A stretch of 64,000 bases of DNA from an uncultured delta proteobacterium (GCA_963712115.1 CAVQGX010000037.1:32001-96000); one strand, 5' to 3'; positions 5,932 through 61,064 are shown, numbered from the stretch's first letter. Numbers and translations: made by a program. The notes: a model not told the origin generated them from the letters alone.

Positions 5932-5970
5932 CTAAGCCCGGATATTTCATGAATCGCCTGCTGTGCTTTG

Positions 5971-40894: not shown

Positions 40895-40999
40895 AAAAGC
40901 GACTGGTCGCTGATGTTGCCAGCCGCTTTTTATTCTTTGGCGTCCCCAAGAGTACTCCCGGTTTACCCCAGTTTTTGTCTGCGTCTCAGGCAACACCAA
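40895..40999 (-). other. tRNA-Glu 3'-end remnant plus terminator (att scar 1)
   Basis: Minus strand CTTGGGGACGCCA at 40938-40950; hairpin AAAAGCGACTGG/CCAGCCGCTTTT; following ~50 bp homologous to the 56123 and 60915 copies. Confidence 0.7.
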
Positions 41000-41012
41000 C
41001 AACAAAAACAAC

Positions 41013-42179
41013 CTAGAAAAAGGCTGAAATCTTCGTTATATCCTCTCCCAAAATAAGAGTGTGAATATCATGGGTTCCCTCGTAGGTGTAGAGGCTCTCC
41101 AGGTTACACATGTGGCGAATAATCCCATACTCGATACTAATACCGTAGGCACCCAGCATGTTTCTGGCCACCCGGGCAATTTTCAGCGCTTCATTGACAT
41201 TGTTCATTTTGGCCATGGAAATATGTTGGTGTCGCCACTTGCCGGCATCTTTCAGACGTCCCACCTGCAAAGCAAGCAACTGCATTTTAGAAATCTCGGT
41301 CAACATCTTCACCAATTTTTTTTGAGTCAACTGGAAGGATGCGATGGGCTTTCCAAACTGAATCCGCTCTTTGGAATAACGTAAGGCCCTGTCGTAGCAA
41401 TCCATGGCCGCTCCAATGGCGCCCCAGGAAATGCCGTAGCGAGCTTCGTTCAAGCACATCAAGGCGCACTTGAGCCCGTTTGCTTCAGGTAGCCTATTGG
41501 ACTCGGGGATTCGTACATCTTCAAAAATGAGCCCCGAGGTAACCGAAGCCCGCAAGGACATTTTTTTCTCGATGGGAAAGGTGAGGAAGCCTTTCGCTCC
41601 TTTTTCCACCAGGAACCCTTTGATCCCTTCGTCAGTTCTGGCCCACACCACAGCCACATCCGCGATATCGCCGTTGGTGATCCAGAGCTTTGAGCCATTG
41701 ATGACCCAGCCTTTCCCATCTTTCTTTGCCCTGGTTTTCATGCCGGCAGGGTCTGAACCATGATCCGGTTCGGTGAGGCCGAAACAACCTATCTTTTCGC
41801 CTGCGGCCATTCTGGGAAGCCAGTATTCTTTCTGCTCCTCGGAGCCAAAGGAATGAATGGGGTACATAACGAGGGAGGACTGCACCGACATGAGACTTCT
41901 GAGACCACTGTCTCCTCGTTCCAGTTCCTGACAGGCGAGGCCGTATTGGACGTTGTTGGTGCCGGCACACCCATAGCCATGGAGTTTCATCCCGAAAAGG
42001 CCCAGTTCCCCAACCTTGGGGATTATCTCCATGGGAAAGGTGGCCTTTTCAAAGTGATCATCTATGAGGGGCATGAACTTCTCATCCACGAACCTTCTCA
42101 CCGTATCCCGAGTAATCTTCTCTTCGTCGCTGAGAAGGTCATCTAGACGCAGAAAATCCAGACCTTGAAATTTGGACAC
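41013..42179 (-). CDS. gcdH: Glutaryl-CoA dehydrogenase-like acyl-CoA dehydrogenase
   Basis: ELERGDSG.RS..SVQSSL, GCFGLTEPDHGSDP, YTYEGTHDIH. Confidence 0.85.
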   Translation of the reverse strand: MSKFQGLDFLRLDDLLSDEEKITRDTVRRFVDEKFMPLIDDHFEKATFPMEIIPKVGELGLFGMKLHGYGCAGTNNVQYGLACQELERGDSGLRSLMSVQSSLVMYPIHSFGSEEQKEYWLPRMAAGEKIGCFGLTEPDHGSDPAGMKTRAKKDGKGWVINGSKLWITNGDIADVAVVWARTDEGIKGFLVEKGAKGFLTFPIEKKMSLRASVTSGLIFEDVRIPESNRLPEANGLKCALMCLNEARYGISWGAIGAAMDCYDRALRYSKERIQFGKPIASFQLTQKKLVKMLTEISKMQLLALQVGRLKDAGKWRHQHISMAKMNNVNEALKIARVARNMLGAYGISIEYGIIRHMCNLESLYTYEGTHDIHTLILGEDITKISAFF

Positions 42180-42208
42180 TGTTCACTCCAAGTTTGAGAT
42201 GATTTAAT

Positions 42209-43447
42209 TTACACCACACCCTTTTCCCTTAACTGCTTAATCTGTTCGGGACTGAATCCTAACTGGTCCTGCAAAATTTCGTCGGTGTGCTCACCGAGCA
42301 GTGGTGGGTGGAGCATGGTCTTGCAGGGGGTCTTGGAAAGCTTCATCGGCGAAGCAACTAACTTGACGGTACCAGCGGTCGGGTGCGGTACTTCTTCGAT
42401 CATGGCTCGCGCTTTGACCTGGGGGTCGGAAAAGACTCTGTCCAGGGTGTTGATGGGACCACAGGGAATTCCTGCCTCTTCAAGCAGATGCAGCCACTCC
42501 TCTGCTTTTTTGCTGAGCATCCTCGCCGCCACAATTGGGACCAGTTCTGTGCGATTTTCAACCCTCGCCGCATTTGTGGCAAACTTTGGATCCTGGGCCA
42601 GTCCTTCTAGACCTGCCAACTTACAGAAGGCTCGCCACTGCTGATCGTTACCAACAGCCAGTGCAACGTAGGATGTCTTTGTTTTGAAGGGCTCGTATGG
42701 CACAATATTTGGATGAGCATTACCATGCCGCACGGGATTCTTCCCTGATACCAGGTAGTTGCTTCCGACATTGGCAAGCCAGGCCATCACAGAGTCGAGA
42801 AGAGAAATGTCAATGTATTGCCCTTCCCCGGACTTTTCTCGGTGGCGCAGAGCAGCCAGAATAGCACTAGAGGCAAACAGCCCGGCGGTGATGTCCACTA
42901 TCGCCACTCCAACCTTCATCGGTGGGCCGTCTGGCTCACCGGTAAAGCTCATCACCCCGCCCATTCCCTGGATCATGAAATCATAGCCCGGTTTGTCTTT
43001 GTACGGTCCATTTTGACCAAATCCCGTAATGGAACAGTAAATCAGACCAGGGTTCTCTTGGCTGAGTTCTCTGTATCCCAGCCCTGTATTATCCAGGGTG
43101 CCGACCTTAAAATTTTCTATCAAGATATCACTCTGCTTTGACAGAGATTTTATGATCTTCACACCCTCAGGGGTTTTCATGTTTGCGGTTAAACTCTTCT
43201 TGTTGCGGTTTACGCACAAATAATACGCGCTCTCCCCTGCAACAAAAGGCGGTCCCCAGTGCCTTGTGTCGTCACCTCCATGGGGGCGTTCCACTTTGAT
43301 GACTTCGGCACCAAGGTCTCCGAGCATCATGGTACAATATGGGCCGGCTAGGACACGGGAAAGATCGAGCACCTTGATACCCTCTAGAGGTAGCTTAGCG
43401 GTTCCTGCTTTCATCAAAACTCCATTTGGTTGGGTTAAAGCCGACAT
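42209..43447 (-). CDS. Class III CoA-transferase (CaiB/BaiF)
   Basis: DLSRVLAGP, NRNKKS, SITGFGQ.GP, PGYD. Confidence 0.93.
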   Translation of the reverse strand: MSALTQPNGVLMKAGTAKLPLEGIKVLDLSRVLAGPYCTMMLGDLGAEVIKVERPHGGDDTRHWGPPFVAGESAYYLCVNRNKKSLTANMKTPEGVKIIKSLSKQSDILIENFKVGTLDNTGLGYRELSQENPGLIYCSITGFGQNGPYKDKPGYDFMIQGMGGVMSFTGEPDGPPMKVGVAIVDITAGLFASSAILAALRHREKSGEGQYIDISLLDSVMAWLANVGSNYLVSGKNPVRHGNAHPNIVPYEPFKTKTSYVALAVGNDQQWRAFCKLAGLEGLAQDPKFATNAARVENRTELVPIVAARMLSKKAEEWLHLLEEAGIPCGPINTLDRVFSDPQVKARAMIEEVPHPTAGTVKLVASPMKLSKTPCKTMLHPPLLGEHTDEILQDQLGFSPEQIKQLREKGVV

Positions 43448-43699
43448 CCTTTTTACGAGGGTCGGAAATAGGTGCCTGAGATTTTGCTGTGAGAACTGAA
43501 AAAAGAATCAGGGTTCAGTGACATAATAATGTTTGCAACTATACCAAGAAACAAGATTGAAGTATACTTTGCAGAAACTTCCAAGGGTATCATTGGGTGT
43601 GATCGGGACGGATCTCGGTTTCAATATTTTTCGTTTTCAATATTGTGTGTTATCGAATAAGTAGCTGTCTTCTTTTAAGAAACGACAGGAGGGTGATCC

Positions 43700-44047
43700 A
43701 TGAAGGTTGTCCGTATGAGCAGCGCAGAGAGTTACGAGCCTGAAAAGGACTGGAAACGTGTGAGTCTCTGCAATGAAAAAGACATTTCCATTGAGCACTT
43801 CATCAAGCCGCCACATCATGCTTCGCCGATGCACGATCATCCGAACGCGCAGGTTCTGGTCGTTCTCAAAGGCAAACTGGCAATCGTTACTGATGGGAGC
43901 GGAGAGCAGGTGCTTGGAGAGGGCGATGCTGCCTATATCCCGGAGAATGAAGCGCATGTGGTGAAGAACCTGCTCGATGTCCCCTCGATCGGCCTCGACA
44001 TATTTGTTCCTGGACGGTCCTTTGATTTCTGGTTGAAGCGAAAGTAG
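43700..44047 (+). CDS. Cupin domain protein
   Basis: H.H...Q...G and YIP.NE.H motifs; DIF.P.R. Confidence 0.9.
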   Translation: MKVVRMSSAESYEPEKDWKRVSLCNEKDISIEHFIKPPHHASPMHDHPNAQVLVVLKGKLAIVTDGSGEQVLGEGDAAYIPENEAHVVKNLLDVPSIGLDIFVPGRSFDFWLKRK

Positions 44048-44126
44048 TCATAGCGTCCATCCGGCCGCCCGGGGTAAGCAAACTGAGTCAGCAGCAGAAA
44101 GCGGGCAATCTAGAAGGTGGGATAGC

Positions 44127-44190
44127 AGCCAACCCTTCGCTGCAGCCGTCCCTTAGACAAGCTTAGGGCGCCCGAGCTCGGCCGTTATAT
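44127..44190. other. Integron attC-like site
   Basis: GCCAAC-CCTTCGCTGCAGCCG...CCCT/AGGG central hairpin...CGAGCTCGGCC-GTTATAT, ~64 bp. Confidence 0.55.
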
Positions 44191-44209
44191 TTCAGGAGGA
44201 TATCAAAAG

Positions 44210-44818
44210 ATGGAAATAAGTCCCGAAAGCAGATCAAACCAGGATATATATAAGATTCTTATTGGCACAGTATTACCTCGGCCAATTGCCTGGGTCTCAA
44301 CCGTTGATACCTCGGGTAACATAAACCTTGCTCCCTTCTCCTTCTTCACGGTTGCAAGTGTTAACCCGCCGATTCTATGCTTCTCTCCACTTCTGCAAGA
44401 AAATTCAATAGAGAAAGACACTCTGGTAAACATCAAACAGACTTCTGAATTTGTGGTGAACATTGTGAGCTACGGTCTGGCCGAGGCAATGAATCGTACA
44501 AGTGGTCCATATCCGTCCGAGGTCAATGAGTTTGATGTAGCTGGAGTTGCCGCGAAGCAATCGACAATTGTTAAGCCTCCCTGTGTTGCAGACTCACTGG
44601 TTAATTTTGAGTGCAAACTTCACCAGATCATTTCTTTCGGCTCAGAGCCAAGGGCCGGGAATCTGGTCTTGGGCCGAGTTTGTAACATTCATATTCATCC
44701 AGACATTGTTAGAAATGGTGAAGTAGACTGTAAGTCCTTGGACGCCATTGGAAGGTTGGGGGGCAATATGTACACTACCATCAGGGATTGCTTCGAGATG
44801 GAAAGACCTGCAATATAA
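44210..44818 (+). CDS. Flavin reductase-like FMN-binding protein (probable gene cassette)
   Basis: PRPIAWVST, NLAPFSFF, KDTL.NI, EFVVN, IGRLGG. Confidence 0.92.
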   Translation: MEISPESRSNQDIYKILIGTVLPRPIAWVSTVDTSGNINLAPFSFFTVASVNPPILCFSPLLQENSIEKDTLVNIKQTSEFVVNIVSYGLAEAMNRTSGPYPSEVNEFDVAGVAAKQSTIVKPPCVADSLVNFECKLHQIISFGSEPRAGNLVLGRVCNIHIHPDIVRNGEVDCKSLDAIGRLGGNMYTTIRDCFEMERPAI

Positions 44819-45295
44819 CCACCCGCTGCGGTCGAACACGGCAAACAACATCCTACTCCCCCCTAATGTTGAGTGCGTCGATCTCCCCACGACTACACCT
44901 GCTTGACACACCAGGACCTTTCATCCTATCATCCTAATATTTATTGCCCTTATCTGGAGCGAGTACTCATCAGTTATCAATCTCCCTCTCATCTTCAGTT
45001 GGACATGTTGAACTTACTATTTGATTAATTGCCACAATGTGGTACTAGATTATTCATAAAAAGAGCGGTTGCAGGCAATTAATCTCTTTTTCTTCTGTTG
45101 CCTCCGAAAGCGGCTATGTATTTTATCCTTTTAAATTAATATGTTGGATGTTTTCAGCAAGGAGAGTATGTCTGATTCCACAATGCTTCGATGAATTAGA
45201 CACATTCAAAGACAGCAGCTTGGCGTCAGGAAGTTGTGCGGCATTTTGAAGTTTCTCATTGACCCAGAACATTTGTACTCAAGGAGGGCAGAATT

Positions 45296-46540
45296 ATGTC
45301 GAGAAAATTAAGAGTTCTAATCGGACTATTAGTAGCTGTCGCTGCCGCTGGTTTCGTTTTTGCGAGTCCGGCCGTCGCCAAGGTTGAGGGCGACACCATT
45401 GTTTTTGGCGCAGCGGTTTCTTTCACCGGGAAATACTCAACCAACGGCAAGCACACCAAGAACGGTTATGATCTTGCCGTAAAGCGGATTAACGAGATGG
45501 GCGGCGTCAAGGTGGGCAATAAGACTTATAAAATCAAGGTCCAATACTACGACGACGAATCAACACCGGCCCGCGCCGGACAGTTGGCCGACCGGCTGAT
45601 CAAGCAGGATGGGATCAAATTCATCCTGGGGCCATACGGTTCCGGTCCGACCAAAGGCATGGCACCGATAACCGAAAAGTACAAGATTCCCATGGTCGAG
45701 GGGAACGGTGCTTCCCGCGCCCTTTTTAACAAAGGCTACCGGTACCTGTTCGCCGTACTTACAACTTCAGAACAGTACTTGGCAGAATCCATCAACTTGC
45801 TCGCAGAAGAGTTCAAGAAGGATGGCAGAGATCCAAGCACTGCTACAGTGGCCATTGCGGTCGAAAACGACCCATTCTCCATGGACATCCGCGCCGGGGT
45901 TTTGGATGATGCCAAGAGGTGGGGCATGAAAGTCGTCATCGACGACAAATTGCCCAAAGAGCTGACCGACATGACCGCCACCCTGACCAAGGTCAAGGCC
46001 TTGAGGCCCGATGCCCTCATCGTATCAGGGCACTCCAAGGGTGCAGCCCTGGCTGTCCGTCAGACGGCCCAGATGAAGGTGGATGTGCCCATGCTGGCCA
46101 CCACCCATTGCGATGCAGCGGACGTGATTGGTAAGTTCGGAGGAGATGCCAATTACACCCTGTGCGCCACCCAGTGGGACCCAACCATGACATACAAGGA
46201 TGACTGGTTCGGCTTTGCCGGAGACTATGCCGACAGATTCGAGAAAGAATACGGCTACGCACCGCCTTACCAGGCCGCTGAGTCGACCGCATCCGTGCTC
46301 GTTTATGTGGATGCCCTGCAACGAGCCGGCACATTCGACACCGAGAAGGTACGCGACGCCATAGCTGCGACGAACCTTCAGACCTTCTACGGCTGGGTCA
46401 AGTTCGATGAAACCGGTAAAAACATCGCCAAACCCATCGTGATGTGGCAGGTTCAGAAGGGCAAATACATACCCGTGGCTCCCAGCAAATTTGCCGCAGG
46501 CCAGGTGATCTTTCCGAAACCTCTGTGGAGAGACCGCTAA
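45296..46540 (+). CDS. Liv/HAAT-family ABC substrate-binding protein
   Basis: Signal peptide; YDDES, LGPYGSG; first gene of an ABC operon. Confidence 0.92.
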   Translation: MSRKLRVLIGLLVAVAAAGFVFASPAVAKVEGDTIVFGAAVSFTGKYSTNGKHTKNGYDLAVKRINEMGGVKVGNKTYKIKVQYYDDESTPARAGQLADRLIKQDGIKFILGPYGSGPTKGMAPITEKYKIPMVEGNGASRALFNKGYRYLFAVLTTSEQYLAESINLLAEEFKKDGRDPSTATVAIAVENDPFSMDIRAGVLDDAKRWGMKVVIDDKLPKELTDMTATLTKVKALRPDALIVSGHSKGAALAVRQTAQMKVDVPMLATTHCDAADVIGKFGGDANYTLCATQWDPTMTYKDDWFGFAGDYADRFEKEYGYAPPYQAAESTASVLVYVDALQRAGTFDTEKVRDAIAATNLQTFYGWVKFDETGKNIAKPIVMWQVQKGKYIPVAPSKFAAGQVIFPKPLWRDR

Positions 46541-46599
46541 ACCCATAAAGCAACCCGCCCGCCCTAGCGATAATCCTAGGGCGGGCCTTCTTATTCGCT

Positions 46600-47499
46600 A
46601 TGGATAATCTTCAAATTTTATTCTCTGCACCGATATTTGCTTTGCAGCTGCTCATTGATGGTCTTCTCATCGGCGCCATCTTTGCGCTGGCAGCCTATGG
46701 CATGGCGCTGGTGTGGGGTGTTATGAAGATCATAAACTTCGCCCAAGGGGAGTTTGTCATCTTGGGGGGATATATGGCCTTCGCCTTCAGCAAAGCAGGA
46801 GTCCACCCCTTCTTCACCGTGCCGCTGTCAACGGTGTCTCTGTACATTGCCGGCTGGTTGTTGTACCGCCTTGTCATCTTCAGAATCGTGGAAGAGGACC
46901 TCTTCATCTCGATTCTAGCCACCTTTGGCATCAGCATACTCATGCAGCAGCTCATGAACCAGGTGTTCACTGCCGACGTTCAGACCGTCGACTCCGGCCT
47001 CGGCACCTGGTTTCTCTTTGACGGCAACGTGACAGTGTTGCAAATCAAGGTCGTCAGCTTTGCCAGCGCCCTGGTACTGGGGGTCTGCCTTGGGCTGTTC
47101 ATGAAAAAGACCCGGCTCGGGCAAACCATCCGTGCTACCGCCCAGAACGCCCGTGCGGCCCGCATTCTGGGTATCGATACAGACAAGGTATATTGCACGA
47201 CCTTTGCATTGAACGCGGCTATCTGCGGCGCCTGCGGGGCCTTGGTCCTTATGACCTGGGTGATTCAACCGTTCATGGGGCTTGCCTATACGATCCGTTC
47301 ATTCATGATTGTCATCATTGCCGGCATCGGCAATGTGGCCGGGGTCGTGCTAGCAGGTCTGGGGCTCGGTGCTGCCGAAAACTTTGCCGGTTTTGTTCTG
47401 GGCACCGAGTTTCAGGCCGCCTTTATCTTTTCATTGCTGGTCGTCATCCTGGTCTGGCGTAACTTTACCCTCAGACTTAAACGAAGGTATCTCCATTGA
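46600..47499 (+). CDS. HAAT ABC permease (LivH-like)
   Basis: INFAQGEF, IRATAQN...A.ILGI. Confidence 0.92.
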   Translation: MDNLQILFSAPIFALQLLIDGLLIGAIFALAAYGMALVWGVMKIINFAQGEFVILGGYMAFAFSKAGVHPFFTVPLSTVSLYIAGWLLYRLVIFRIVEEDLFISILATFGISILMQQLMNQVFTADVQTVDSGLGTWFLFDGNVTVLQIKVVSFASALVLGVCLGLFMKKTRLGQTIRATAQNARAARILGIDTDKVYCTTFALNAAICGACGALVLMTWVIQPFMGLAYTIRSFMIVIIAGIGNVAGVVLAGLGLGAAENFAGFVLGTEFQAAFIFSLLVVILVWRNFTLRLKRRYLH

Positions 47500-48557
47500 A
47501 CACCGTTGAACGAAATCTCGCTCTTTACGGCTCCATCCTCATTGTTTCCCTGGCCGCCCCCTGGGTGTTCCCCGCCTACCGCACCCAGTTGGCGTTCTTG
47601 TGGATAATGGTGCTGTTTGCCCTTACCTGGGACCTGGTAGGCGGGCAGATGGGATATACATCCTTTGGGAATATCGTGTTTTTCGGCATCGGTATGTACG
47701 TGACCGCGGTGATCCAACGGAATCTACATTTTGACATCGAAGAGTACGTTCATGTGGCGGGCGCAGTTGATATGTTGCAGCCCGGTGAATATTTGAGCGG
47801 ACTTTTTCTGGGCATGGGTGCAAGCGCCATTGTTGCCGTGATCGTTGCGGTGGTCCTCGGCCTCTGTATCCTGGCCATGGGGATGCGCGGTCAATATTTC
47901 GGCATTTGTACCCTTGGTCTCGGGGTCGCCGCCGGCGAACTTGCCAGCGGCTGGGAATACATCGGTGCCGGATCGGGGATGGTAACGCCGGTGTTTCCCG
48001 AAAGATTGGGTGAGCGCGGAATCTTCTTCTATTACATTTTTTTCATCCTGGCCGGGATGGTATTCCTGACCTTGAAATGGCTCTATGCGGGTCGCTTCGG
48101 CCTTGCTATCAACGCCATCCGAGACGATGAGGACAAGGCCGAAGCCATGGGCATCCGCACCACCCGGTATAAAATGACAGCCTGGTGCATTTCCGGTTTC
48201 TTCCTTGCAATTGCAGGAGGCGCTGCCGGCCATCTGGTGGGATTCATCGATCCTACGGAAGTGGCTTTTGCCGGCGCAACTTTCGGCGTTTGGATGATCT
48301 TGATGGCAATCCTCGGCGGCAAGGGAACCCTTTGGGGACCGGTGATCGGGGCGGTGATTTTTCATATTACCCAGGAACTGTTCTGGACATACCTTTTTGG
48401 CTGGCAGCGCGTGGCAATGGGCGCCCTTATCGTCGGTATCGTAGTCTTTTTTCCCCAAGGAATCATCGGCTGGATCCGCGACCGCTGGCCGGAACGCTTT
48501 GGCCATCGAGTAGAGGAAAGTACCGTTTCCAGTTCTTCCGGGGGAGGTGGGGCATGA
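47496..48557 (+). CDS. HAAT ABC permease (LivM-like)
   Basis: GY.SFG, AIRDDEDKAEAMGI, ILGGKGTLWGP. Confidence 0.92.
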   Translation: MNTVERNLALYGSILIVSLAAPWVFPAYRTQLAFLWIMVLFALTWDLVGGQMGYTSFGNIVFFGIGMYVTAVIQRNLHFDIEEYVHVAGAVDMLQPGEYLSGLFLGMGASAIVAVIVAVVLGLCILAMGMRGQYFGICTLGLGVAAGELASGWEYIGAGSGMVTPVFPERLGERGIFFYYIFFILAGMVFLTLKWLYAGRFGLAINAIRDDEDKAEAMGIRTTRYKMTAWCISGFFLAIAGGAAGHLVGFIDPTEVAFAGATFGVWMILMAILGGKGTLWGPVIGAVIFHITQELFWTYLFGWQRVAMGALIVGIVVFFPQGIIGWIRDRWPERFGHRVEESTVSSSSGGGGA

Positions 48558-49300
48558 CCGGACAGCAGCTGATGGTGGAAGGTGTCACCAAAAGGTTCGG
48601 TGGTGTCGTTGCCAATGACAACATCAGTCTCTCTGTGCCTGAGGGTAGCATCGTCGGCCTCATCGGCCCCAATGGATCCGGCAAAACCACACTGTTCAAC
48701 TCTATTGTTGGCTACCACCCCATCGACCAGGGCTCCATCCGCTTTGAAGGCCGCGAAATCTCAGGCCTGAGGGTGACTGAGATCGCGCGGTTGGGGATGC
48801 TGAGAACCTTCCAGCAAACGCGAGTTTACGCCAAGATGACCTGCGTGCAAAACATGCAGATCAGCGTGCCCCGGCAAAACGAGGGTTTTGGCGCCATGTT
48901 CTCTAAGTCTCATCCGAAGATCATGAAGAAGGCCGAGAGCTTGCTGGCCTTTGTCGGTCTTTATGCCAAACGGTACCTCCTGGCAGGAGATCTTTCCTTC
49001 GGCCAGCAGAAACTTCTCGAGTTCGCCATGGCACTTATGAACGAGCCCAAGCTGCTTCTTCTGGACGAGCCCACGGCGGGAATCAATCCGACCCTGATCA
49101 ACGGCCTGATCGACCGCTTGAAACGCTCAAATGCAGACCTCGGTATCACGCTTTTTATTATCGAGCATAACATGCCCGTTATCATGGACCTTGCCGAACA
49201 TATCTACTGTTTGGCCCATGGAGAACTCCTGGCCGAAGGCCCGGCCGATGAGATCCGAGACGATCAGCGGGTGATCGACGCTTATCTCGGGGCGAACTGA
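48554..49300 (+). CDS. HAAT ABC ATPase (LivG-like)
   Basis: GPNGSGKTT, LSFGQQK, LLDEP, AYLG; ATG 48554 after GGAGG. Confidence 0.93.
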   Translation: MTGQQLMVEGVTKRFGGVVANDNISLSVPEGSIVGLIGPNGSGKTTLFNSIVGYHPIDQGSIRFEGREISGLRVTEIARLGMLRTFQQTRVYAKMTCVQNMQISVPRQNEGFGAMFSKSHPKIMKKAESLLAFVGLYAKRYLLAGDLSFGQQKLLEFAMALMNEPKLLLLDEPTAGINPTLINGLIDRLKRSNADLGITLFIIEHNMPVIMDLAEHIYCLAHGELLAEGPADEIRDDQRVIDAYLGAN

Positions 49301-50178: not shown

Positions 50179-50214
50179 CCTGGATAACTCACCACACTCG
50201 TCTATTTGCAAGGA

Positions 50215-51273: not shown

Positions 51274-51276
51274 GCT

Positions 51277-52029: not shown

Positions 52030-52382
52030 TTCAAATTACTCCTAAGCTGATCGAGTTTGTGAAATATTTAAAGGCGATCTGTTCAACCTCTTACAAGGAT
52101 GGCTATCAGACCACTCAGGGAATCTGGTTGTCTAAGGCACCACTGGTTAAGATCGTTTTGTGCTTGTTTTAGACGGTCTAACCCCTAATATATCTTGCCA
52201 AAAGACAAGCTTGGCCTCATTCACACAGGCACTTATAGCAAAAAATAAAACCTTAGGCAAAACGCTGGCAAATTCAGCATGTCCAGAACATATCATCCAA
52301 TCAGGAAGTAGAGGTTGTCCCACGATTCTGTCTGCTGTATGATTCCCCGATAAAAATTACATATTGATATGGGTGGTTTCGC

Positions 52383-53258: not shown

Positions 53259-53346
53259 TACGGCGGACGATGGCGGGCAGGCAGACGCGATTCGACCCTC
53301 AAGCTGAAAGGTCATATTTTGACAACCTGTGACATAAGGTGAAGTG

Positions 53347-55920
53347 ATGGGAGCATCAACCGTCCCTGGAAAACCTGATTCCGCACTTGGAGGAGGTACC
53401 CTGGGGACCTTCGCTGGGGTTTTTACCCCGAGCATTTTGACTATTCTGGGAATCATCCTCTTCCTGCGGCTCGGTTATGTTGTCGGGAACGCAGGCCTAG
53501 GTCGCGCCCTCATCATTATTGGCCTGGCAAACGCCATCTCTATACTAACCAGTGTTTCACTTTCTGCGATTGCCACGAACATCAAGGTAAGGGGGGGAGG
53601 GGATTACTATCTCATCTCCCGGACCCTTGGTGTGGAATTCGGTGGCTCCATAGGGATTGTCCTCTTTCTCGCCCAATCGGTATCTGTCGGCTTCTACTGT
53701 ATAGGGTTTGCCGAGGCCGTGACCAGCTTCATTCCAGATGCTGGAAGATTTTTGCCACAGATCGTAGCTGGCCTCGCAGTGCTATTTCTTTTTGTCTTCG
53801 CCTGGCTGGGTGCAGATTGGGCCACCAAGTTCCAGTATGTGGTGATGGTCACATTGGCAGCCGCACTGATCTCGTTTTTTGCCGGCGGTCTGGCTAAGTG
53901 GGACACGGTAATTCTCCTTCAAAACTGGGTGGCGCCTCCTGCTGGTGCTGAGTTTTGGGTTCTTTTCGCCATTTTCTTTCCGGCGGTCACAGGCTTCACC
54001 CAGGGCGTAAGCATGTCAGGCGACCTCAAGGATGCGGGTAAGAGCTTACCATCGGGAACATTTTTGGCGGTGGGGCTGTCGATCATCATCTACTTCGGGG
54101 TGGCGGTAGTATTCGCTGCCACCCTGCCCAACGACCTCCTAATTGGCGACTACGGGGCCATGAAACGTGTTGCGCGGTTCAACTTTCTCATCGATGCAGG
54201 GGTAATCGCAGCCACTTTGTCCTCCGCCATGGCCAGTTTTATGGGCGCACCTCGCATCTTGCAATCCCTGGCAGGTGACCGTACTTTTCCTTTCCTTCTG
54301 CCGTTTGCCAAGGGATATGGCCCGACCGGCAATCCTCGTCGAGGTGTTTTGCTGTCTGGGGGAATCGCTCTGGGCACCATAACTCTAGGCAATTTGAATC
54401 TGGTGGCATCAGTTGTCTCTATGTTCTTCTTGATTTCCTATGGCCTTCTTAACTACGCTACTTTTTACGAGGCTCGGGCAGCCAGCCCATCATTCCGCCC
54501 TAGGTTTCGTTTTTTCGATCTGCGGCTCAGCTTCCTCGGCGGGCTAGCATGCCTTGGAGCGATGCTGGCAATTGATCTGGCGGCTGGTGCAGCGGCAACT
54601 GCACTCCTGTTTGCTATCTACCAGTATCTCAAGCGAACCGCAGGTCCAGCAAGGTGGGCTGATAGTCGTCGCTCTTACTACCTACAGCGCGTGCGGGAGA
54701 ATCTTCTGGCTGCGGGACTAGAGCCCGAGCATCCTCGGGATTGGCGCCCCCATTTGCTTGCCTTCTCCAATGACTCCCACAGACGCAAACAACTTCTGCG
54801 ATTTGCTTCCTGGCTTGAGGGTGGCAGTGGTTTTACCACAGCGGTGCGCATTCTGGAAGGAGAAGGGGTGAAAATGCTGAAATTACGTCAGGAGGCTGAA
54901 GCGGAACTTCGTGCCGACATCGCTGACTATGGTATGCAAGCCTTTCCCCTTGTAGTAGCCGCACCCAATCTCAACCTTGGTGTTCACACCTTGGTGCAAT
55001 CCTTTGGCATCGGGCCGCTACGGGTGAATACAATTCTTCTCAACTGGCTCGAACAGCTTCCCAAAGGCATTCTTGGCCTTGGGGAATTTCAATATGCAAC
55101 AAATCTCCGCACCGCCTTCCGGTTGGGTTGTAACATCGTGGTGCTGGACGCCAAGGAGGAAGAATGGATCTCCCTGGAGACTCTTTCCCCTGATGAAAGG
55201 CGTATAGATGTATGGTGGTGGGACGATGCGACCAGCCGCCTGATGCTTCTGCTTGCGTATCTGATGACCCGAAGTGATGCTTGGGGTGAGGCGAGGATTC
55301 GGGTGCTGGCTGCTGGTCAAGATGGGGAATTAGATGAAGAGGTGGAGGGCCTCAAGAAGATGCTCGAGGAGGCCCGAATTGAAGCGGAACCAGAGATAGC
55401 AGAGAACATGAACTCCGAAACTGTTGTGGAGCACTCCGGTGATGCTGCCCTGGTGTTTTTCCCGTTTCGACTGCGGGGGAATCAGCTTCTGGACCCATTT
55501 GATAAACCTCTTGATGCAATTCTCCCTCGTTTGCCCATTGTGGCTCTGGTTCTGGCTGCTGAGGATATCGAACTCGACGCTGAACCCGAAGAAGGAATAG
55601 CTGGAGAAAGCGCTGCAGCGCTTGATACTTTTGCAGATGCTGAGAAGAAAGCCCGGGAGGCGGAGAAGGAGGCAGTTGCCGCAAAGGAGGAGTTAGAAAA
55701 GTGGCTTGGAGAGATCCGGGCTGCCACTGAATCCGGCGCCAAGCATGAGGATTTGTCTAAGATAGAGGGTGCTGCCCTTGAAGCCGAAGAACGGGTAAAC
55801 AAAGCTACTCGGCGGGCAGCCAAGGCCAAGGCCAAATTGGAAGATGCAGCCAGAACGGTTGAGGCCCTTGGGGTAAAACCTCCAGAGGTAGACAAAGAGC
55901 CCGGGGAGACGCAAGATTGA
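53347..55920 (+). CDS. SLC12/cation-chloride cotransporter-like APC permease
   Basis: GVFTPSILTILG, GGG.YYLISRTLG.EFGG, FFPAVTG, SGDLK, DWRPH, DVWW; coiled-coil tail. Confidence 0.9.
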   Translation: MGASTVPGKPDSALGGGTLGTFAGVFTPSILTILGIILFLRLGYVVGNAGLGRALIIIGLANAISILTSVSLSAIATNIKVRGGGDYYLISRTLGVEFGGSIGIVLFLAQSVSVGFYCIGFAEAVTSFIPDAGRFLPQIVAGLAVLFLFVFAWLGADWATKFQYVVMVTLAAALISFFAGGLAKWDTVILLQNWVAPPAGAEFWVLFAIFFPAVTGFTQGVSMSGDLKDAGKSLPSGTFLAVGLSIIIYFGVAVVFAATLPNDLLIGDYGAMKRVARFNFLIDAGVIAATLSSAMASFMGAPRILQSLAGDRTFPFLLPFAKGYGPTGNPRRGVLLSGGIALGTITLGNLNLVASVVSMFFLISYGLLNYATFYEARAASPSFRPRFRFFDLRLSFLGGLACLGAMLAIDLAAGAAATALLFAIYQYLKRTAGPARWADSRRSYYLQRVRENLLAAGLEPEHPRDWRPHLLAFSNDSHRRKQLLRFASWLEGGSGFTTAVRILEGEGVKMLKLRQEAEAELRADIADYGMQAFPLVVAAPNLNLGVHTLVQSFGIGPLRVNTILLNWLEQLPKGILGLGEFQYATNLRTAFRLGCNIVVLDAKEEEWISLETLSPDERRIDVWWWDDATSRLMLLLAYLMTRSDAWGEARIRVLAAGQDGELDEEVEGLKKMLEEARIEAEPEIAENMNSETVVEHSGDAALVFFPFRLRGNQLLDPFDKPLDAILPRLPIVALVLAAEDIELDAEPEEGIAGESAAALDTFADAEKKAREAEKEAVAAKEELEKWLGEIRAATESGAKHEDLSKIEGAALEAEERVNKATRRAAKAKAKLEDAARTVEALGVKPPEVDKEPGETQD

Positions 55921-56080
55921 TCTCTGGGAGCTAACGCCAGCCGCGGCAAAGCAGTAATGGAATTCAGAGGCGCGTGGCCAGCCACATCTTGGTCAACAGT
56001 GCCCTTCGAAGTCATTCAATCTAACACCCTCCACCTGGTCAAGATAACCATCGAATACATTCCACCAGTATTGCCCAAAA

Positions 56081-56235
56081 AGAAAAGCCCCCATAAGAAG
56101 TGAGAGCTTATCTGTAATTCAAATGGCGTCCCCAAGGGTACTCCCCGTTTACCCCAGTTTTTTCTACGTCTCAGGCAGCATCAGAATGTTGTTGAGTATT
56201 ATCCCTCTAGGAGGCAGCGGAAACCATTGCTTCTC
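56081..56235 (-). other. tRNA-Glu 3'-end remnant plus degenerate terminator (att scar 2)
   Basis: Minus strand CCCTTGGGGACGCCA at 56124-56138; following ~110 bp homologous to 60915-61025. Confidence 0.7.
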
Positions 56236-56662
56236 CTAGTAATAGGTCTTTCAATTGGTATTTAGCTGAAGCTAATAGTTCGAAAGTTGACCCAACAGAG
56301 TTTATATTAAGATATGCTTTTCATGATTTTAATTCTGGTCAAGTTTTAAGCTTGGCAAAATACTTTCAGTTACTGTTCAAATATATTTCCCCCTACATAT
56401 TAGCTCAAAAGAAAGTTTTCTAGCCAAATTACCGAAAAGAAGATGGTGATAGTATTATGCTAATTTCTTTATATTGTTACCTCCCAATAATAATAATTAT
56501 AAATGACTTGACTTCCGCCAAGAAAGTGAGTATCATCCTCTCAATCAATAAAGGGCCGTCTTTATTGACGGCCCGGTTTCGTTCTGAGGGAAGATCCATT
56601 TGTCAAAAGTGGCAACCCCGAGTTTGGAACCTTGAGAATCTTTTTGAAAGGAGGGTGTCACT

Positions 56663-56863
56663 ATGACCAATGGAATTGTGAAGTGGTTTGATAGCCAAAA
56701 AGGCTACGGCTTCATTGAGCAGGAAGATGGCCCGGATGTATTCGTCCACCATTCAGGGATAAACGCATCGGGTTACAAATCTCTCAATGATGGCGACAGC
56801 GTGACTTTTAATGTGGAGCAGGGCCAAAAAGGGCCTGCTGCCGTGAACGTCACCAAGATTTAG
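56663..56863 (+). CDS. cspA: Cold-shock protein
   Basis: GIVKWF, KGYGFI, DVFVH. Confidence 0.95.
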
Positions 56864-56927
56864 TTGGCGGTAACACGCTTATTAAGGGCATCTCGTCTAA
56901 GTAAGGCAAGATGTCCTTTTCATTTGT

Positions 56928-57128
56928 ATTTGAGCAAAGAAAACCTGGTCCTGTGGGCCAGGTCAAGTTTCAATGGCTTTGCCAGCAGAAGAGGTTTAAG
57001 GCACAAGGCGTAAGGCGCAAGGCATAGGGAGAGAGTGAGTTTTCTTTTATTGTTTTTACCTTGTGCCCTGTACCTTGAGCCTTGAGCCGTTCGCTTTTGA
57101 CAGCTCAAAGCCAGGTTCTTTGGGCCTG
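56928..57128. repeat. Heptamer-containing repeat element
   Basis: Reverse complement matches 2160-2218 and 2640-2750; the AGGACCAGGTTTTC end also occurs at ~28347. Confidence 0.8.
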
Positions 57129-57221
57129 AATTCTTTACTTGCCTTGCCAAAGTCGGGTTAAGCAAGGAAAAATGACCAAATCTGAAAATAAGACTATGAA
57201 AGGCTGGTTATTATCTGAAAG

Positions 57222-57938
57222 ATGAATCTCTTAAGCGGAATTACTTATAACTTGCGTGGTCTACGGCTGGGCATAAAGACCCCTAAGCTTCTTGTATTGG
57301 GGCTTATCAGGTTTGCCGCCGTCGTCATCATTACCATTCTTGCAACAAGCCTTATCCTTGTTTACCATGAGAAGATTCTGCATCTCATTTGGGCTAAGCC
57401 TGCAAGTCAATGGATTCTTTGGTTATGGTACGTCCTCTCCTGGGTGCTTTCCTTATTCCTAGTGGGGCTGTCGGCCATTCTTTCCTATCTTGTCTCGCAA
57501 ATACTCTTCGGTGTGTTCATCATGGATTACATGTCTCGAGTTACTGAACGCATGATGCTGGGCGAGGAACATGAACCGGAGAAAGTGCCCGTGTTGCGGC
57601 AACTTTCCTATCTTGTCAAACAGGAAATACCAAGAACGATCCTCCCAGTTTTAGTAATCCTTCTACTCATGGTTCTAGGCTGGCTTACACCCTTGGGCCC
57701 GGTGCTGGCGATCCTCTCATCGGGAATTGCGGTCATTTTTCTCGCCTGGGACAATACGGATCTTGTTCCTGCAAGAAGGCTTTATCCTTATAAGAAGCGT
57801 TTCAAACTCTTGTTGGATAGCCTCACGTTTCACTTGGGTTTCGGCCTTCTGTTCCTGATTCCTCTATTGAACATCCTTTTTCTCTCCTTCGCACCAGTGG
57901 GCGCCACTATCTACTTTATCGATAAGCATGACAAATAG
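57222..57938 (+). CDS. EI24/CysZ-like membrane protein
   Basis: Multi-TM; D.MS..TE, FLAWD..D....RR, IPLLN...PVGAT. Confidence 0.8.
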   Translation: MNLLSGITYNLRGLRLGIKTPKLLVLGLIRFAAVVIITILATSLILVYHEKILHLIWAKPASQWILWLWYVLSWVLSLFLVGLSAILSYLVSQILFGVFIMDYMSRVTERMMLGEEHEPEKVPVLRQLSYLVKQEIPRTILPVLVILLLMVLGWLTPLGPVLAILSSGIAVIFLAWDNTDLVPARRLYPYKKRFKLLLDSLTFHLGFGLLFLIPLLNILFLSFAPVGATIYFIDKHDK

Positions 57939-58094
57939 AGGCTATTCAAAGATCAGCTTTACGACTGGCTCTCCCTCAATCCTTCACAAGGTCATCTCTA
58001 TTTTTGGGTAAGCGGAAGTCAACTATTTAATCTTGTTGGGATAAAAGCGAAAATAGTCAATAAAGATTGGGTAACATCTTACGAGGCGATCTAG

Positions 58095-59270
58095 GTGAAA
58101 GACGAAGATAAGACAAAAGAGCAATTCATAAATAAATTGGTGGAGTTGCGGCGGCGGATTGCTGAATTGGAAGCACTGGCAGGCGAGCACAAGCGGGCAG
58201 AGCAGGAGACTCGTGAATACGCTGAAAGCATAGTGGATACGGTTCGTGAGGGTCTTTTGGTGCTTGATGGGGATCTGAGGGTAATTTCGGCCAACCGTTC
58301 TTTCTACGAGACATTCAAAGTGAAACCTGGGGAGACCGAGGGACAGCTAGTATATGACCTGGGCAACCGACAGTGGAACATCCCCAAGCTGCGAGAACTG
58401 CTGGAAGAGATCCTCCCCACGGACACAACCTTCGACAACTTCGAGGTGGAGCATGAATTCAAGATAATCGGGCGCCGAGTAATGCACCTGAACGCTCGAC
58501 GGATATACAGGGAGACCAACGAGACCCGTTTGATTCTCCTGGCCATTGAAGATGTGACCGAGCGCAAGCGAGCGCAGCAAGCACTGCGACAGAGCTCTGA
58601 AGAACTGAAGTTTTTTGCTTATTCGGTTATGCACGATCTTAAGAGTCCGGCTATAGGCATCTATGGACTGACAGAGCTTCTTCATAAGCACTACAAAGAT
58701 GCTCTTGATGAAAGGGGTAGGAGCTACTGTGATCAAATCTTAAAAGCTTCCGTGCATGTTGCGGCGCTCATTGAAAAGATCAATGTCTACATCGCGACGA
58801 AGGAATCACCTTTAAAGATTGAGAAAATAAACATAAAAGATATTCTGCAGATGGTTAGAGAAGAGTTCTCACCTCGGCTGGCTGTTCGTCAAGTAAAGTG
58901 GTTGGAACCCGACGGCATGGTAGAGGTCAAAGCAGATCAGTTGTCTATCCTTAGGGTTTTCAGAAATTTCGTGGATAACGCATTAAAATACGGTGGCGAA
59001 GAATTAAGCGAGATTAGAATTGGCCATGAAGAATCTGAAGAATTCCACACTCTTTCCATAAGCGACGACGGTGCTGGCGTAAGAGAAGGAGATTATGCAA
59101 GGATTTTTGCGGCCTTTCGAAGGGGCGAGACATATAAAGCGGTTGAAGGCGTTGGCCTCGGATTGGCCATAGTGGCCGAAATAGCAGAACGCCATGGGGG
59201 CAGGGTGTGGGCGGAGTCCAGAAATGACCGATGGACAAAATTTCATATATCTATTGCAAAATATTTGTAA
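58095..59270 (+). CDS. Cytoplasmic PAS sensor histidine kinase
   Basis: PAS (SANRSFY), HDLKSP, NALKY, DDGAG, GVGLGLAIV. Confidence 0.93.
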   Translation: MKDEDKTKEQFINKLVELRRRIAELEALAGEHKRAEQETREYAESIVDTVREGLLVLDGDLRVISANRSFYETFKVKPGETEGQLVYDLGNRQWNIPKLRELLEEILPTDTTFDNFEVEHEFKIIGRRVMHLNARRIYRETNETRLILLAIEDVTERKRAQQALRQSSEELKFFAYSVMHDLKSPAIGIYGLTELLHKHYKDALDERGRSYCDQILKASVHVAALIEKINVYIATKESPLKIEKINIKDILQMVREEFSPRLAVRQVKWLEPDGMVEVKADQLSILRVFRNFVDNALKYGGEELSEIRIGHEESEEFHTLSISDDGAGVREGDYARIFAAFRRGETYKAVEGVGLGLAIVAEIAERHGGRVWAESRNDRWTKFHISIAKYL

Positions 59271-59681
59271 TCTTCTTTTTTTCTAGATTTCGGACTTCTC
59301 CTCTCGGTGCAAAGCAGAATTCAGCAAAAGGGTTCAAGACCAAAACCGTGAACATGGGAAATTAAGATGAGCTAATTTCGATCGAGTCTTGAGTGCTTTT
59401 GGTATTATATCTCCTGCTGTCACAAACCAGTTGTTTCCGTTATCCTAGTTTCTGTCGTTCCCGATTTCAAATCAAGATAACCGCTTTCCCTTGTTGACAT
59501 AAACCGTCTGCTACCCTTAATATGGAAATAGCTCACATTTTCTGGTGATTTTCACTCCACTTTTGCACCTCTCTGCTCCAGCCGCTGGTAATCCCAAAGA
59601 AGGAGCGTGACATGCAAAGAATGGCCGCTTTCTTATTACTCTTAATTTCATTATCTCTGGTGGGTTAAAGGAGGATGAGCC

Positions 59682-59903
59682 GTGAAAGAGCAGTGCGAAA
59701 ATTGTAGGTTTTGGAGGAGACCTGAAGCTCAAGCAGAAAAGGCCGCTGGTAATTGTCGTCGCTATGCCCCTAGACCTTGGGGCTGCGGCTATGTTGGGGT
59801 GGACATTCGTGAAGATGAATCTATTGAGAGAAAACTCTATTCTATTGCATTGTGGCCGACCACCCACGGCCATGAATGGTGTGGTGAGTGGCAGAAAAAA
59901 TAG
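59682..59903 (+). CDS. Small Cys-rich protein (CxxCRFW...GxCRRxxP...WP...WCGE)
   Basis: GGAGGA RBS; motif style recalled from phage/MGE small proteins. Confidence 0.7.
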   Translation: MKEQCENCRFWRRPEAQAEKAAGNCRRYAPRPWGCGYVGVDIREDESIERKLYSIALWPTTHGHEWCGEWQKK

Positions 59904-59929
59904 TGGGTTTATCGTGAGCGGAAGATAGC

Positions 59930-60703
59930 ATGCCCTACTCCATTGTTTTCATTCTTATACTGGCGGTCCTTTTTCTGGCCAGTGCAATTCGGATTCTCAA
60001 GGAATACGAGCGGGGAGTCATTTTCCGTCTAGGAAGGGTCATTGGTGCCAAAGGACCGGGGCTTATCATTCTCATCCCTGTGGTAGATCGGATGGTGAAG
60101 GTCAGCCTGCGGTTGGTGGCCATGGACGTACCTCCTCAGGATGTGATCACCCGAGATAACGTATCCGTGAAGGTCAATGCAGTGATCTATTTCCGGGTGA
60201 TGGATTCCATCAAGGCGGTGGTGGAGGTGGAAAATTATCTCTACGCCACCTCCCAGATGGCCCAAACCACCCTGCGCAGTGTTTGCGGGCAGGGGGAGCT
60301 GGATGAACTGCTCTCTGAACGTGAAAAGATCAATAGGCAGCTCCAGGAGATTTTGGATGAGCACACCGACCCCTGGGGCATTAAGGTGAGCACTGTTGAG
60401 GTCAAGCACATCGATCTGCCCCACGATATGCAACGAGCCATGGCCCGCCAGGCTGAAGCCGAGCGGGAGCGCCGTGCCATGGTTATCAACGCAGAGGGGG
60501 AGCACCAGGCTGCGAATCGCCTGGCCGAAGCGGCCCGGATCATCTCCGACCATCCCATTGCACTTCAGCTCCGCTATTTACAGACCCTGCGAGAGGTCGC
60601 TGCGCAGAGCAAATCCAGCACGCTCTTTCCCATTCCCATTGATTTGTTCGAACCGTTTCTGCAGTTAGAGGAAAACGTGAAAAAAGAAAGCCCTGGCAGC
60701 TGA
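59930..60703 (+). CDS. Stomatin/slipin SPFH (band 7) protein
   Basis: [48 protein letters not shown]. Confidence 0.96.
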
Positions 60704-60739
60704 TTGTGCGCCAGCCACCCCCGGTGCTCACTTGGTAGT

Positions 60740-60756
60740 CGTCCCCAAGGGGATTC
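60740..60756 (-). other. tRNA-Glu T-arm/acceptor remnant (att scar 3)
   Basis: Minus strand GAATCCCCTTGGGGACG. Confidence 0.6.
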
Positions 60757-60867
60757 CCTTCGTGTAAGGAACTTGTCCTGAGCGAGAGCGAAGGAGGGCA
60801 AGCTCACTTCCCTGTTGCCCGCTCTCCGAGCGGGAGGCCTACGAGTTCAAATCCGCCGGCACAATGC

Positions 60868-61064
60868 AAAAAGAAGAGGGCCAACTAAAATTACAGTTGA
60901 CCCTCTTTTTTTACATGGCGTCCCCAAGGCTACTACCCGTTTACCCGTGTTTTTATCTAATACTCAGAGAACACCACAGTTTTGTTGAATTTTACTCATC
61001 ACGGAGACATCAGAAGCCAATGCTGGCCAAGTTTAGTTATTGGCAAGCTATCTGGAATTCTTGA
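60868..61064 (-). other. Terminator, tRNA-Glu 3'-end remnant and conserved peptide frame (att scar 4)
   Basis: AAGAGGGCCAACT/AGTTGACCCTCTT hairpin; CCTTGGGGACGCCA on minus at 60916-60929; plus-strand frame MASPRLLPVYP... open to 61064. Confidence 0.72.

Follow-up and report, generated by a model that had tools for sequence, protein, structure and literature searches.

We analyzed a 64,000-nucleotide (nt) stretch from an uncultured delta proteobacterium (positions 32001-96000 of contig C37 in assembly G000, which comprises 4.9 Mb in 70 contigs and is 94% complete), referred to below as the window, in which a short repeat derived from the 3' end of tRNA-Glu recurs in tandem and is followed each time by the same orphan coding tail. 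The core of this repeat, TGGCGTCCCCAAG, occurs exactly at positions 40938, 56124, and 60916, all on the plus strand, as the initial annotation had reported. A variant with two mismatches, AGTCGTCCCCAAG, is also present, although at 60737-60749 rather than at 60740 as given there. Beyond the motif, the three exact copies have a further 55-120 nt in common, located to the right of the core. Allowing up to two mismatches, the window contains five matches against 1.84 expected, a number reached in 4 of 100 shuffles; in window statistics, the short motif by itself is only weakly significant. Across the whole assembly there are only four exact copies, namely the three in the window and the 3' end of tRNA-Glu, and a control with the reversed pattern gave no matches; the genome-wide scatter that would have spoken against a tRNA origin was not seen.

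In antisense, the core equals CTTGGGGACGCCA, the 13-nt terminus (including CCA) of the sole tRNA-Glu(ttc) gene of this genome (C38:81194-81271, 78 nt from the contig end), and its proposed derivation from a tRNA-Glu CCA end therefore holds. Variant copies at other loci (e.g., L020 and L008) match the tRNA-Glu 3' end over up to 20 nt. The initial annotation had also predicted an intact minus-strand tRNA-Glu beyond the right edge of the window; none exists on the contig, which extends 94 kb further, and the only one lies at the end of C38. A fifth, diverged copy of the repeat is found at C37:100199, 4.2 kb past the right edge, and its left flank and the sequence that follows the true tRNA-Glu share 85% identity. 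In several metagenome-assembled genomes (MAGs), tRNA-Glu is located at contig ends, which fits repeats or strain variation there. ARAGORN called no tRNA in the window, and an Rfam search of the window returned no match at gathering score or at E <= 1. Compared with tDNA islands as characterized in excerpts of the Islander work (PMC4383910), the window has the displaced fragment identical to a tRNA 3' end (13 nt, three times), whereas the intact tDNA is not on the same replicon in the same orientation, C37 being without tRNA-Glu, and no integrase gene lies inside.

The repeat is not confined to this genome. A search of 41 genomes with the 56124 copy revealed one to six copies each in 10 of the 17 other genomes of the same genus and in none of the 23 genomes of other genera. 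Scanning with a peptide pattern uncovered 10 loci in GTDB representative genomes, all of them MAGs (labeled Syntrophobacterales, Syntrophobacteria, Desulfobacterota, Deltaproteobacteria, or Desulfobacteraceae), and 26 loci in metagenome contigs, with 0 loci in IMG/VR. As tandem stacking would have it, 11 distinct contigs carry two to five cores each, all co-oriented, with a spacing of 1.2-15 kb.

Upstream of the cores, on the plus strand, we found hairpins of a particular kind. In 36 of 41 distinct copies, a hairpin begins no more than 20 nt from the CCA end and has a folding free energy (dG) of <= -8 kcal/mol; 23 of these copies also have a T-run, and the median hairpin dG is -19.5 compared with -6.7 in shuffles. 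All three window copies have terminator-like stems on the minus strand, in line with the earlier remark that a hairpin precedes each core. By sequence, the hairpins can be sorted into a small number of types, of which two are native tRNA-Glu terminators of the genus. Hairpin type a is the terminator that follows true tRNA-Glu genes in three sister genomes (G016, G010, and G005), and type c is the one that follows them in the present genome (C38) and in G003; in addition, the left flank of locus L070 is the G003 flank downstream of tRNA-Glu. Since the hairpins match native tRNA-Glu terminators, each unit consists of element arm, tRNA core, and host flank and is built like an attR junction, i.e., the right-hand junction of an element integrated at an attachment (att) site. 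The suggestion that the repeats are attP-derived arms of elements targeting tRNA-Glu is supported by this anatomy.

Reading the plus strand through the core (xTG GCG TCC CCA AGG) gives ASPRVLPVYPSFYLRLRQHxNxVEFYPSRRHRKPMLV..., with a stop after 37-48 codons, and we could reproduce the three peptide readings first described in the window, including the 1-nt shift in the 56124 copy. Column variability is 0.23-0.27 at codon position 3 and 0.10-0.14 at positions 1 and 2, and the Nei-Gojobori ratio of nonsynonymous to synonymous substitutions (dN/dS) in the tail frame is 0.31 (445 pairs from 31 in-register copies), both of which uphold the observation that many differences between copies are synonymous or conservative. 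For the other two plus-strand frames, the ratio is 2.15 or stop codons interrupt the reading, and on the minus strand the frame with the same wobble position contains a conserved stop, as judged by eye in the alignment. The tail frame is open over 37 codons in 35 of 43 distinct copies.

This pattern bears on the reading of the repeat as a minus-strand gene for a structured RNA, that is, a small tRNA-like molecule that terminates with the acceptor strand of tRNA-Glu and CCA and is followed by a terminator. Such an RNA would indeed end in GGGGACGCCA directly before the terminator, and some copies allow a GUCUCC...GGGGAC pairing and a CUGAGAC loop of 7 nt. However, the RNAalifold consensus of 16 copies contains only 12 pairs, none of them with compensatory changes, variation in the putative 5' acceptor strand is uncompensated, fold z-scores range from -0.2 to -2.8, neither ARAGORN nor Rfam recognized it, and the 3-nt periodicity fits the plus-strand open reading frame (ORF). 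On the basis of the codon-position pattern and the lack of compensatory change, we accept the coding reading and reject the RNA gene, which we regard as barely credible.

A coding tail might, in principle, be a small-protein gene of ~45 codons that works in place, for instance as a basic DNA-binding factor at each cassette boundary, with an incidental tRNA-like start. The proportion of open copies, the dN/dS value, the similar stop position in most copies, and the presence of ATG, TTG, or GTG before GCG in most of them would all agree with this idea. However, the T and G of that apparent start are merely the complement of CCA, the ORF begins right at the terminator T-run with no Shine-Dalgarno-like sequence seen, and Pfam has no match for the tail. 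Orthologous copies decay as well: the 40938 tail is truncated to 60 nt in this genome and, at the orthologous site in G002, to 17 nt, and the 56124 tail is frameshifted. At the DNA level, tails are 72-94% identical, compared with 80-95% for neighboring cargo genes. Truncation, frameshift, and lower conservation together argue that tails are not maintained in place, and in one locus (L043, see below) the frame extends upstream into the C-terminal domain of a recombinase. We thus hold a resident small-protein gene to be highly improbable; the dN/dS signature would instead indicate selection that acted inside working recombinase genes. No gene-like sequence reads into the tail in 40 of 41 distinct copies.

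A search for the parent protein led to large serine recombinases (LSRs). Among the matches listed, an IMG/VR scan with a 15-mer core yielded 81 matches in 80 loci, of which 51 continue as tRNA-Glu-like sequence and 30 as something else. Six of these listed loci represent an attL form, in which an ORF of 504-529 amino acids (aa) reads in the same frame into antisense tRNA-Glu and ends in ...ASPRGFEPLLPA, ...LLPP, or ...LYSP, and six loci (five distinct sequences) represent an attP form, in which the ORF crosses the core and has its own tail of 16-22 residues after ASPR. Pfam analysis of three frame-matched ORFs identified Resolvase, Recombinase, and Zn_ribbon_recom domains in L146, and Resolvase and Recombinase domains in L080 and L085. 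Among solved structures, the SPbeta LSR is the nearest, with a match that covers residues 147-453. According to BLASTP, the frame-matched ORFs form one family with 21-60% identity, on contigs with a GC content of 43-71%, and the tRNA-Glu that L146 adjoins has 98.75% identity with its counterpart in the present genome. By its domains, the recombinase is of the serine type, not the tyrosine type one might assume.

The link between this family and the orphan tail comes from a sister species (G012:C60, seen as L013 and L043), where 71 open in-frame codons precede the core and align with the C terminus of the L146 protein (61% over 64 residues, E value of 5e-27), in register to ASPR. After ASPR, this remnant, which with its tail comprises 115 aa, continues VLPVYPSFYVKLRQHF..., the end of the body being joined in frame to ASPRVLPVYPSF. 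Because the remnant is in register up to ASPR and then reads VLPVYPSF, the tail would be the recombinase C terminus in the whole gene, either in the attP form or at a restoring junction. By homology, then, the tail is the severed C terminus of an LSR whose gene spans its own attachment site, and ASPRGFEP is the ending of the integrated form. An integrase ORF that spans the att site and differs in its C terminus between attP and attL is seen in both the listed IMG/VR loci and the L043 remnant; a protein with LSR domains beside the att site (all three domains in L146, the first two in L080 and L085) occurs in the related IMG/VR elements and not in the window. The initial annotation had assigned the tail to a recombinase and foreseen an ASPRGFEP-type ending, both of which are borne out by LSRs that end in the same frame in the residues given above; of the two endings it proposed to look for, the ASPRGFEP form is present in full-length LSRs, whereas the VLPVYP form is present in the L043 remnant and in no intact protein of the databases searched. 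A second remnant of the L146 lineage, in another family of Desulfobacterota, reads into a true tRNA-Glu.

No search brought up an intact recombinase with the orphan tail. Tail queries against a 5.8-billion-protein database retrieved only read-through hypothetical ORFs of 70-132 aa, and the L043 remnant had no match there. With the L146 LSR as the query, IMG/VR returned the protein itself and relatives at 23-28% identity only, none of 122 genomes of the class matched at E <= 1e-40, and 1 of 401 genomes of the phylum matched, with a remnant. Within the genus, its only matches were the remnant in G012 and, in G017, two LSRs with 26-27% identity. The present assembly gave 0 hits with PF07508 and 0 hits in a tblastn search with the L146 LSR, and no recombinase domain was found in the scanned window ORFs, which agrees with the earlier statement that the recombinase bodies are gone. 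Nor is there a recombinase upstream of the true tRNA-Glu, where the genes encode a ClpX-like AAA protein, radical SAM proteins, and hemB. Phage_integrase had 12 hits in the assembly, none of them on C37 or C38, and several converge on other tRNAs. On C39, C46, C50, and C12, genes for tyrosine integrases end 30-90 nt from tRNA genes (convergent in the first three, in sense orientation in C12) and correspond to ordinary tRNA-linked islands.

Some further features of these recombinase genes were recorded. In L146 (~5670-5720), L043 (~5950-6000), and L209 (~1635-1675), all members of the L146-type lineage, a GC-rich hairpin lies by eye within the last ~15 codons before ASPR, and its stem sequence differs in each. 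After integration, this hairpin is ~15 nt downstream of the tRNA CCA and may be a replacement tRNA terminator. The two G017 LSR ORFs (L200 on C236 and L202 on C203; 26-27% identical to L146) run off contig ends, and their last bases are TGG..., like an antisense tRNA 3' end, which suggests that core-crossing ORFs are common among LSRs of this group. Tyrosine integrases of 363-441 aa in IMG/VR (L117 and L083/L109/L126) also cross the tRNA-Glu core into antisense tRNA, L117 in the LSR frame and L083/L109/L126 in another frame.

One complete island can be delimited in the window. The segment from 56124 to 60749 has an attR (hairpin, core, and tail) at 56124 and an attL at 60737 that abuts a tRNA-Glu pseudogene; the two ends share 11 nt exactly. 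The alignment of this pseudogene, which we call a v unit, with tRNA-Glu begins at the anticodon arm and reaches the CCA end; the pseudogene is the target (B arm) of the 4.6-kb island. Accordingly, the segment of ~0.2 kb that had been counted as stacked cargo is instead this target plus a terminator, and 60737 is the attL core of the island. The genome of G009 has the same pseudogene, hairpin b, and core-tail unit, but the site holds a 1.6-kb cassette. Moreover, G010 carries v units in tandem after the true tRNA-Glu, each with its own terminator. Both the 4.6-kb island (with its 11-nt repeats) and the 1.6-kb cassette in L049 and L045 (with attR and attL-like ends) are flanked by att sites without a recombinase of their own, as is characteristic of cis-mobilizable elements (CIMEs). 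In most of the 21 pairs of cassette copies, homology starts at the core TGG, 2-5 nt before the GCG codon. At the other side, the match stops ~100 nt beyond the second gene in both copies for 16 of these pairs; in the remaining pairs it runs on in one locus. Beyond the cassette end lies either a degenerate core with a tRNA-Glu pseudogene (L049 and L045) or the next tail (L051).

The cargo beside the tail includes a 229-aa protein of unknown function paired with a DUF6036 nucleotidyltransferase in 8-9 loci, HepT/MntA in 5 loci, and AbiEi in 4 loci. The 229-aa protein, for which no family match was obtained, and its DUF6036 partner are probably a toxin-antitoxin or defense pair. The cassette corresponds to L040:411-1717, with relatives in L044, L045, L049, and L051-L053, and palindromes of the form TTGTATA..TATACAA are repeated upstream of its genes. 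The GC content of the blocks (0.44-0.54) was uninformative. As for the v units, they were also seen at C38 ~80915-81027 of the present assembly, in L033 (G010:C52), at L049 ~1910-2006, and at L070 ~2944-3040. Their T-loop insertion of ~31 nt or more has a shared motif and is found for tRNA-Glu and tRNA-Lys, the motif occurring near tRNA-Val and tRNA-Arg genes as well. The anticodon-arm stems differ in sequence (CCGGC/GCCGG, CCCGC/GCGGG, and CACCC/GGGTG) and yet remain paired, which hints at a maintained structure. The v units may be no more than decayed att fragments, or they may function as tRNA-like units or as landing sites.

Comparison of copies places the breaks in homology at the core. 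For L052 and L053, identity is 100% in the 200 nt to its left and 83% in the tail; L052 and L064 share 98% left of the core and 79% in the tail and are unrelated further on. Across the genus, the content of blocks is kept while their neighbors change, with breakpoints at window positions ~40997-41004, ~53270, 60746, and 61056. We also mapped Logan contigs of four estuary and marine-sediment runs on the window. In each of three runs, one contig joins 53271 directly to 56124; another contig joins 56358 to 61056, and one diverges at 61056. These joints hint at polymorphism at element boundaries. Some metagenome contigs have an extra T at 56157, which may be cross-mapping, and a loose end at 56124 that resembles the 40938 hairpin was not counted because it may be cross-mapping of a paralogous copy.

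Rearrangement of this kind could also come from an ordinary dispersed repeat, which arose at one tRNA-Glu junction and spread by duplication or homologous recombination with no recombinase now acting. This explanation accords with a genome that has no LSR, with a nearly invariant stretch (the first ~34 nt) that could support homologous exchange, and with surrounding gene blocks that are ordinary and rearranged among species. Against it speak the homology between copies that starts exactly at the core TGG across at least five unrelated left flanks, the shared orientation of all arrays, the left flanks that are specifically tRNA-Glu terminators, and the islands that are bounded by core repeats and have attL against a pseudo-tRNA; we consider it unlikely.

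Our preferred interpretation, which we consider probable, is that the units are scars of site-specific integration at the 3' ends of tRNA-Glu genes and pseudogenes by an LSR whose gene spans attP, the recombinase bodies having been lost later. In the free (attP) form, the ORF would comprise the body, an x-ASPR segment encoded by the antisense of the last 13-15 nt of the tRNA, and a tail of ~41 codons. Integration would split the gene, so that the body at the tRNA side would end in eight residues of antisense tRNA-Glu (GFEPLLPA) and the tail would be left at the far junction beside the native tRNA terminator, giving hairpin, core, and tail on the plus strand, i.e., attR. Of the junctions in the window, three would then be attR scars, and one (60737) would be an attL that faces a tRNA-Glu pseudogene. 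They would have arisen through serial integration by a tRNA-Glu-specific LSR and subsequent loss of the bodies, and two of the tails are now decaying, one truncated and one frameshifted. Pseudogenes of tRNA-Glu downstream of tRNA-Glu genes would also serve as integration targets; the evidence for pseudo-tRNA units as targets is direct for two islands, and we infer the same for others.

Several points weigh against this account of the array. Canonical LSR rules (attP x attB only) alone do not yield arrays with a host-type terminator before every core. The array does not adjoin tRNA-Glu in the present assembly, and an attL partner is lacking for three of the four main copies. Body and tail are linked on one contig, seen as L013, L043, and L201, and no intact recombinase with a VLPVYPSF tail was found in the 5.8-billion-protein database, in IMG/VR, in the 36 genome and metagenome loci, or in the 122 class and 401 phylum genomes. 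Furthermore, the metagenome joints are single contigs whose shorter side is only 31-40 nt, and the high share of intact tails (35/43) could also mean selection in place. With respect to the first of these points, if tandem pseudo-tRNA units with their own terminators are extra targets, this would explain the host-type terminators beside many cores. Overall, the tandem arrangement described in the initial annotation is confirmed, and its interpretation is supported in part, most of it proving right.

Some consequences of this scheme can be formulated more tentatively. The swap of C termini may change the activity or stability of the recombinase, tandem pseudo-tRNA units may act as extra landing sites, and recombinase-less blocks (56124-60749 and the 1.6-kb toxin-antitoxin-like cassette) may be moved in trans by the recombinase of a helper. 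The joints at cores in metagenomes and the differing islands at the same site in this genome and G009 are the only hints of such helper-driven excision or transfer. It is possible, if doubtful, that these elements combine into a multi-site landing platform of tRNA-Glu and tandem pseudo-tRNAs with their own terminators, on which an LSR supplied in trans by rare helpers inserts, swaps, and stacks recombinase-less cassettes (toxin-antitoxin modules or metabolic operons) that bear a vestigial recombinase tail as attP arm, with the attP tail of ~41 residues doubling as a switch that would render the recombinase fully active (or unstable) in the excised form only. If true, the platform would constitute integron-like gene accretion built on a serine recombinase and a tRNA.

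The features of the window are compiled in Table 1.

TABLE 1 Features of the repeat units and the intervening blocks in the window
Feature	Position	Strand	Remarks
Terminator hairpin, type a	40896-40934 (stem 40911-40898)	-	Directly downstream (tRNA sense) of core copy 1
Truncated recombinase tail, ~21 codons, LASPRVLPVYPSFCLRLRQHQ	40937-41003	+	Deletion joins tail to flank downstream of acyl-CoA dehydrogenase gene
Core copy 1	40938-40950	+	Antisense of tRNA-Glu last 13 nt including CCA
SLC12-type transporter block	53272-56123		Right boundary is first base of core copy 2
Terminator-like hairpin, 9 pairs	56109-56085	-	Downstream (tRNA sense) of core copy 2
Frameshifted recombinase tail (1 nt after codon 13)	56123-56358	+	Element-family homology reaches 56358
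Core copy 2	56124-56136	+	attR core of 4.6-kb island
Cargo of 4.6-kb island	56359-60736		Cold-shock protein, CysZ-like, PAS histidine kinase, and SPFH/Band7 genes; no recombinase
Degenerate core AGTCGTCCCCAAG	60737-60749	+	attL core of 4.6-kb island; 11 nt exact with copy 2
tRNA-Glu pseudogene 3' half (v unit)	60750-60865	-	Anticodon-arm-like stem-loop and T stem; T loop replaced by insertion
Terminator hairpin, type b, 14 pairs	60907-60874	-	Downstream (tRNA sense) of core copy 3
Intact tail ORF, M + 48 codons + stop, MASPRLLPVYPCFYLILREHHSFVEFYSSRRHQKPML...	60915-61064	+	Element right boundary ~61056, where metagenome contigs diverge
Core copy 3	60916-60928	+	Exact TGGCGTCCCCAAG

Other kinds of element were considered as well. 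A homing spacer of a CRISPR-associated transposon, a group II intron end, an IS200/IS605 end, and a retroelement primer-binding site, all weighed on anatomy only, were dropped, as the flanks are tRNA-Glu terminators. Integron attC sites were set aside in view of a tRNA-derived repeat, a tail without a conserved hairpin, and blocks of up to a dozen genes on both strands (no IntI-specific search was made).

In the neighborhood of the units, the left end of the SLC12 block (53271-53300) reads TGGCGGGCAGG...GATTCGACCC, faintly resembling an antisense tRNA 3' end; it matches no tRNA of the assembly and shares TGGCG with the core at the other end of the block. The cold-shock gene at 56663-56863, which encodes 66 aa and has a long leader, is part of a multicopy family with at least six further copies in this genome and many in each genome of the genus, and the stretches 56400-56926 (gene and leader) and 56930-57140 (just after it) are both repeated. 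The intergenic region upstream of an S21-like gene (39796-40600) is likewise multicopy across the genus. Two MreB paralogs on the minus strand, at 62696-63724 of the window and at C37:96827-97873, lie <5 kb apart; further mreB-like copies at ~70% identity are present, many per genome of the genus, in which the best match of the window copy is 81-83%.

These observations point to a widespread family of LSRs (host GC content of 43-71%) that have the highly conserved tRNA-Glu 3' end as their target and genes that always cross their own att site in one frame. For genome engineering, recombinases are sought whose natural target is both short and conserved. Furthermore, the selected tail of 41 codons is evidence, at the level of sequence, for a functional C terminus encoded by attP, a question that the work on the Dehalococcoides recombinase DsiB left open. 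In addition, the mosaic gene order in this genus of sediment Syntrophobacterales can be explained as ordinary operons lying between scars of old and recent exchange points. A literature search found no paper on a tRNA-Glu-specific serine recombinase, although most subscription journals were outside the search and such a paper may have been published.

Several known systems share parts of this arrangement. The arrays of staphylococcal cassette chromosome (SCC) and pseudo-SCC elements at rlmH (orfX) are tandem cassettes built by the LSRs CcrAB, with short direct repeats, and some of the cassettes lack a recombinase and depend on others; their target is the 3' end of a protein gene, and the recombinase ORF is not known to span the site. 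In streptococcal integrative and conjugative elements, accretion involves CIMEs that are flanked by att sites, have no recombination genes, and are in tandem with and moved by a related element, but the integrases are of the tyrosine type and are not known to leave a recombinase tail at the junction. Integration-dependent immunity of mycobacteriophages is an analogous case. In phage Mx8, whose Int is a tyrosine recombinase that targets tRNA-Asp, attP reportedly lies inside the integrase gene, and integration into the tRNA 3' end is said to replace the integrase C terminus. These two traits are shared with the family described here, which is of the serine type; no orphan-tail arrays are described for Mx8. 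The passages of PMC4383910 that cite Tojo et al. (1996) likewise present IntP of Mx8 from Myxococcus xanthus, and also the SSV integrases, as integrases whose ORF spans att. The "suicidal" integrases of SSV-type archaeal viruses, as outlined in excerpts of PMC7253208, have the att site inside the integrase ORF, and integration halves the gene; they are archaeal tyrosine recombinases split in mid-gene, whereas here the last ~45 codons are severed.

The closest known system is the ssrA islands of Dehalococcoides with their serine recombinase DsiB. In the relevant sections of McMurdie et al. (2011; PMC3146451), these islands are described as tandem, located downstream of a small RNA gene, and marked by a short direct repeat of its 3' end. 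DsiB is given there as a protein of ~540 aa; the 3' end of its ORF overlaps attL in every case, and the junction therefore determines the stop codon. The same sections report 15 ssrA islands without an integration module, which were proposed to be cis-mobilizable. The overlapping part of DsiB is described as divergent, and its function was doubted by the authors. As far as those sections go, the two systems are alike in their tandem islands at the 3' end of an RNA gene, a serine recombinase ORF that overlaps att, and modules without an integrase. They differ in the target, which is tRNA-Glu here and tmRNA there, and in the overlap, which is divergent there, whereas here the attP-side tail has ~41 codons and shows purifying selection. 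Finally, the arrays described here persist detached from the tRNA in a genome without the recombinase, and tRNA pseudogenes serve as targets.

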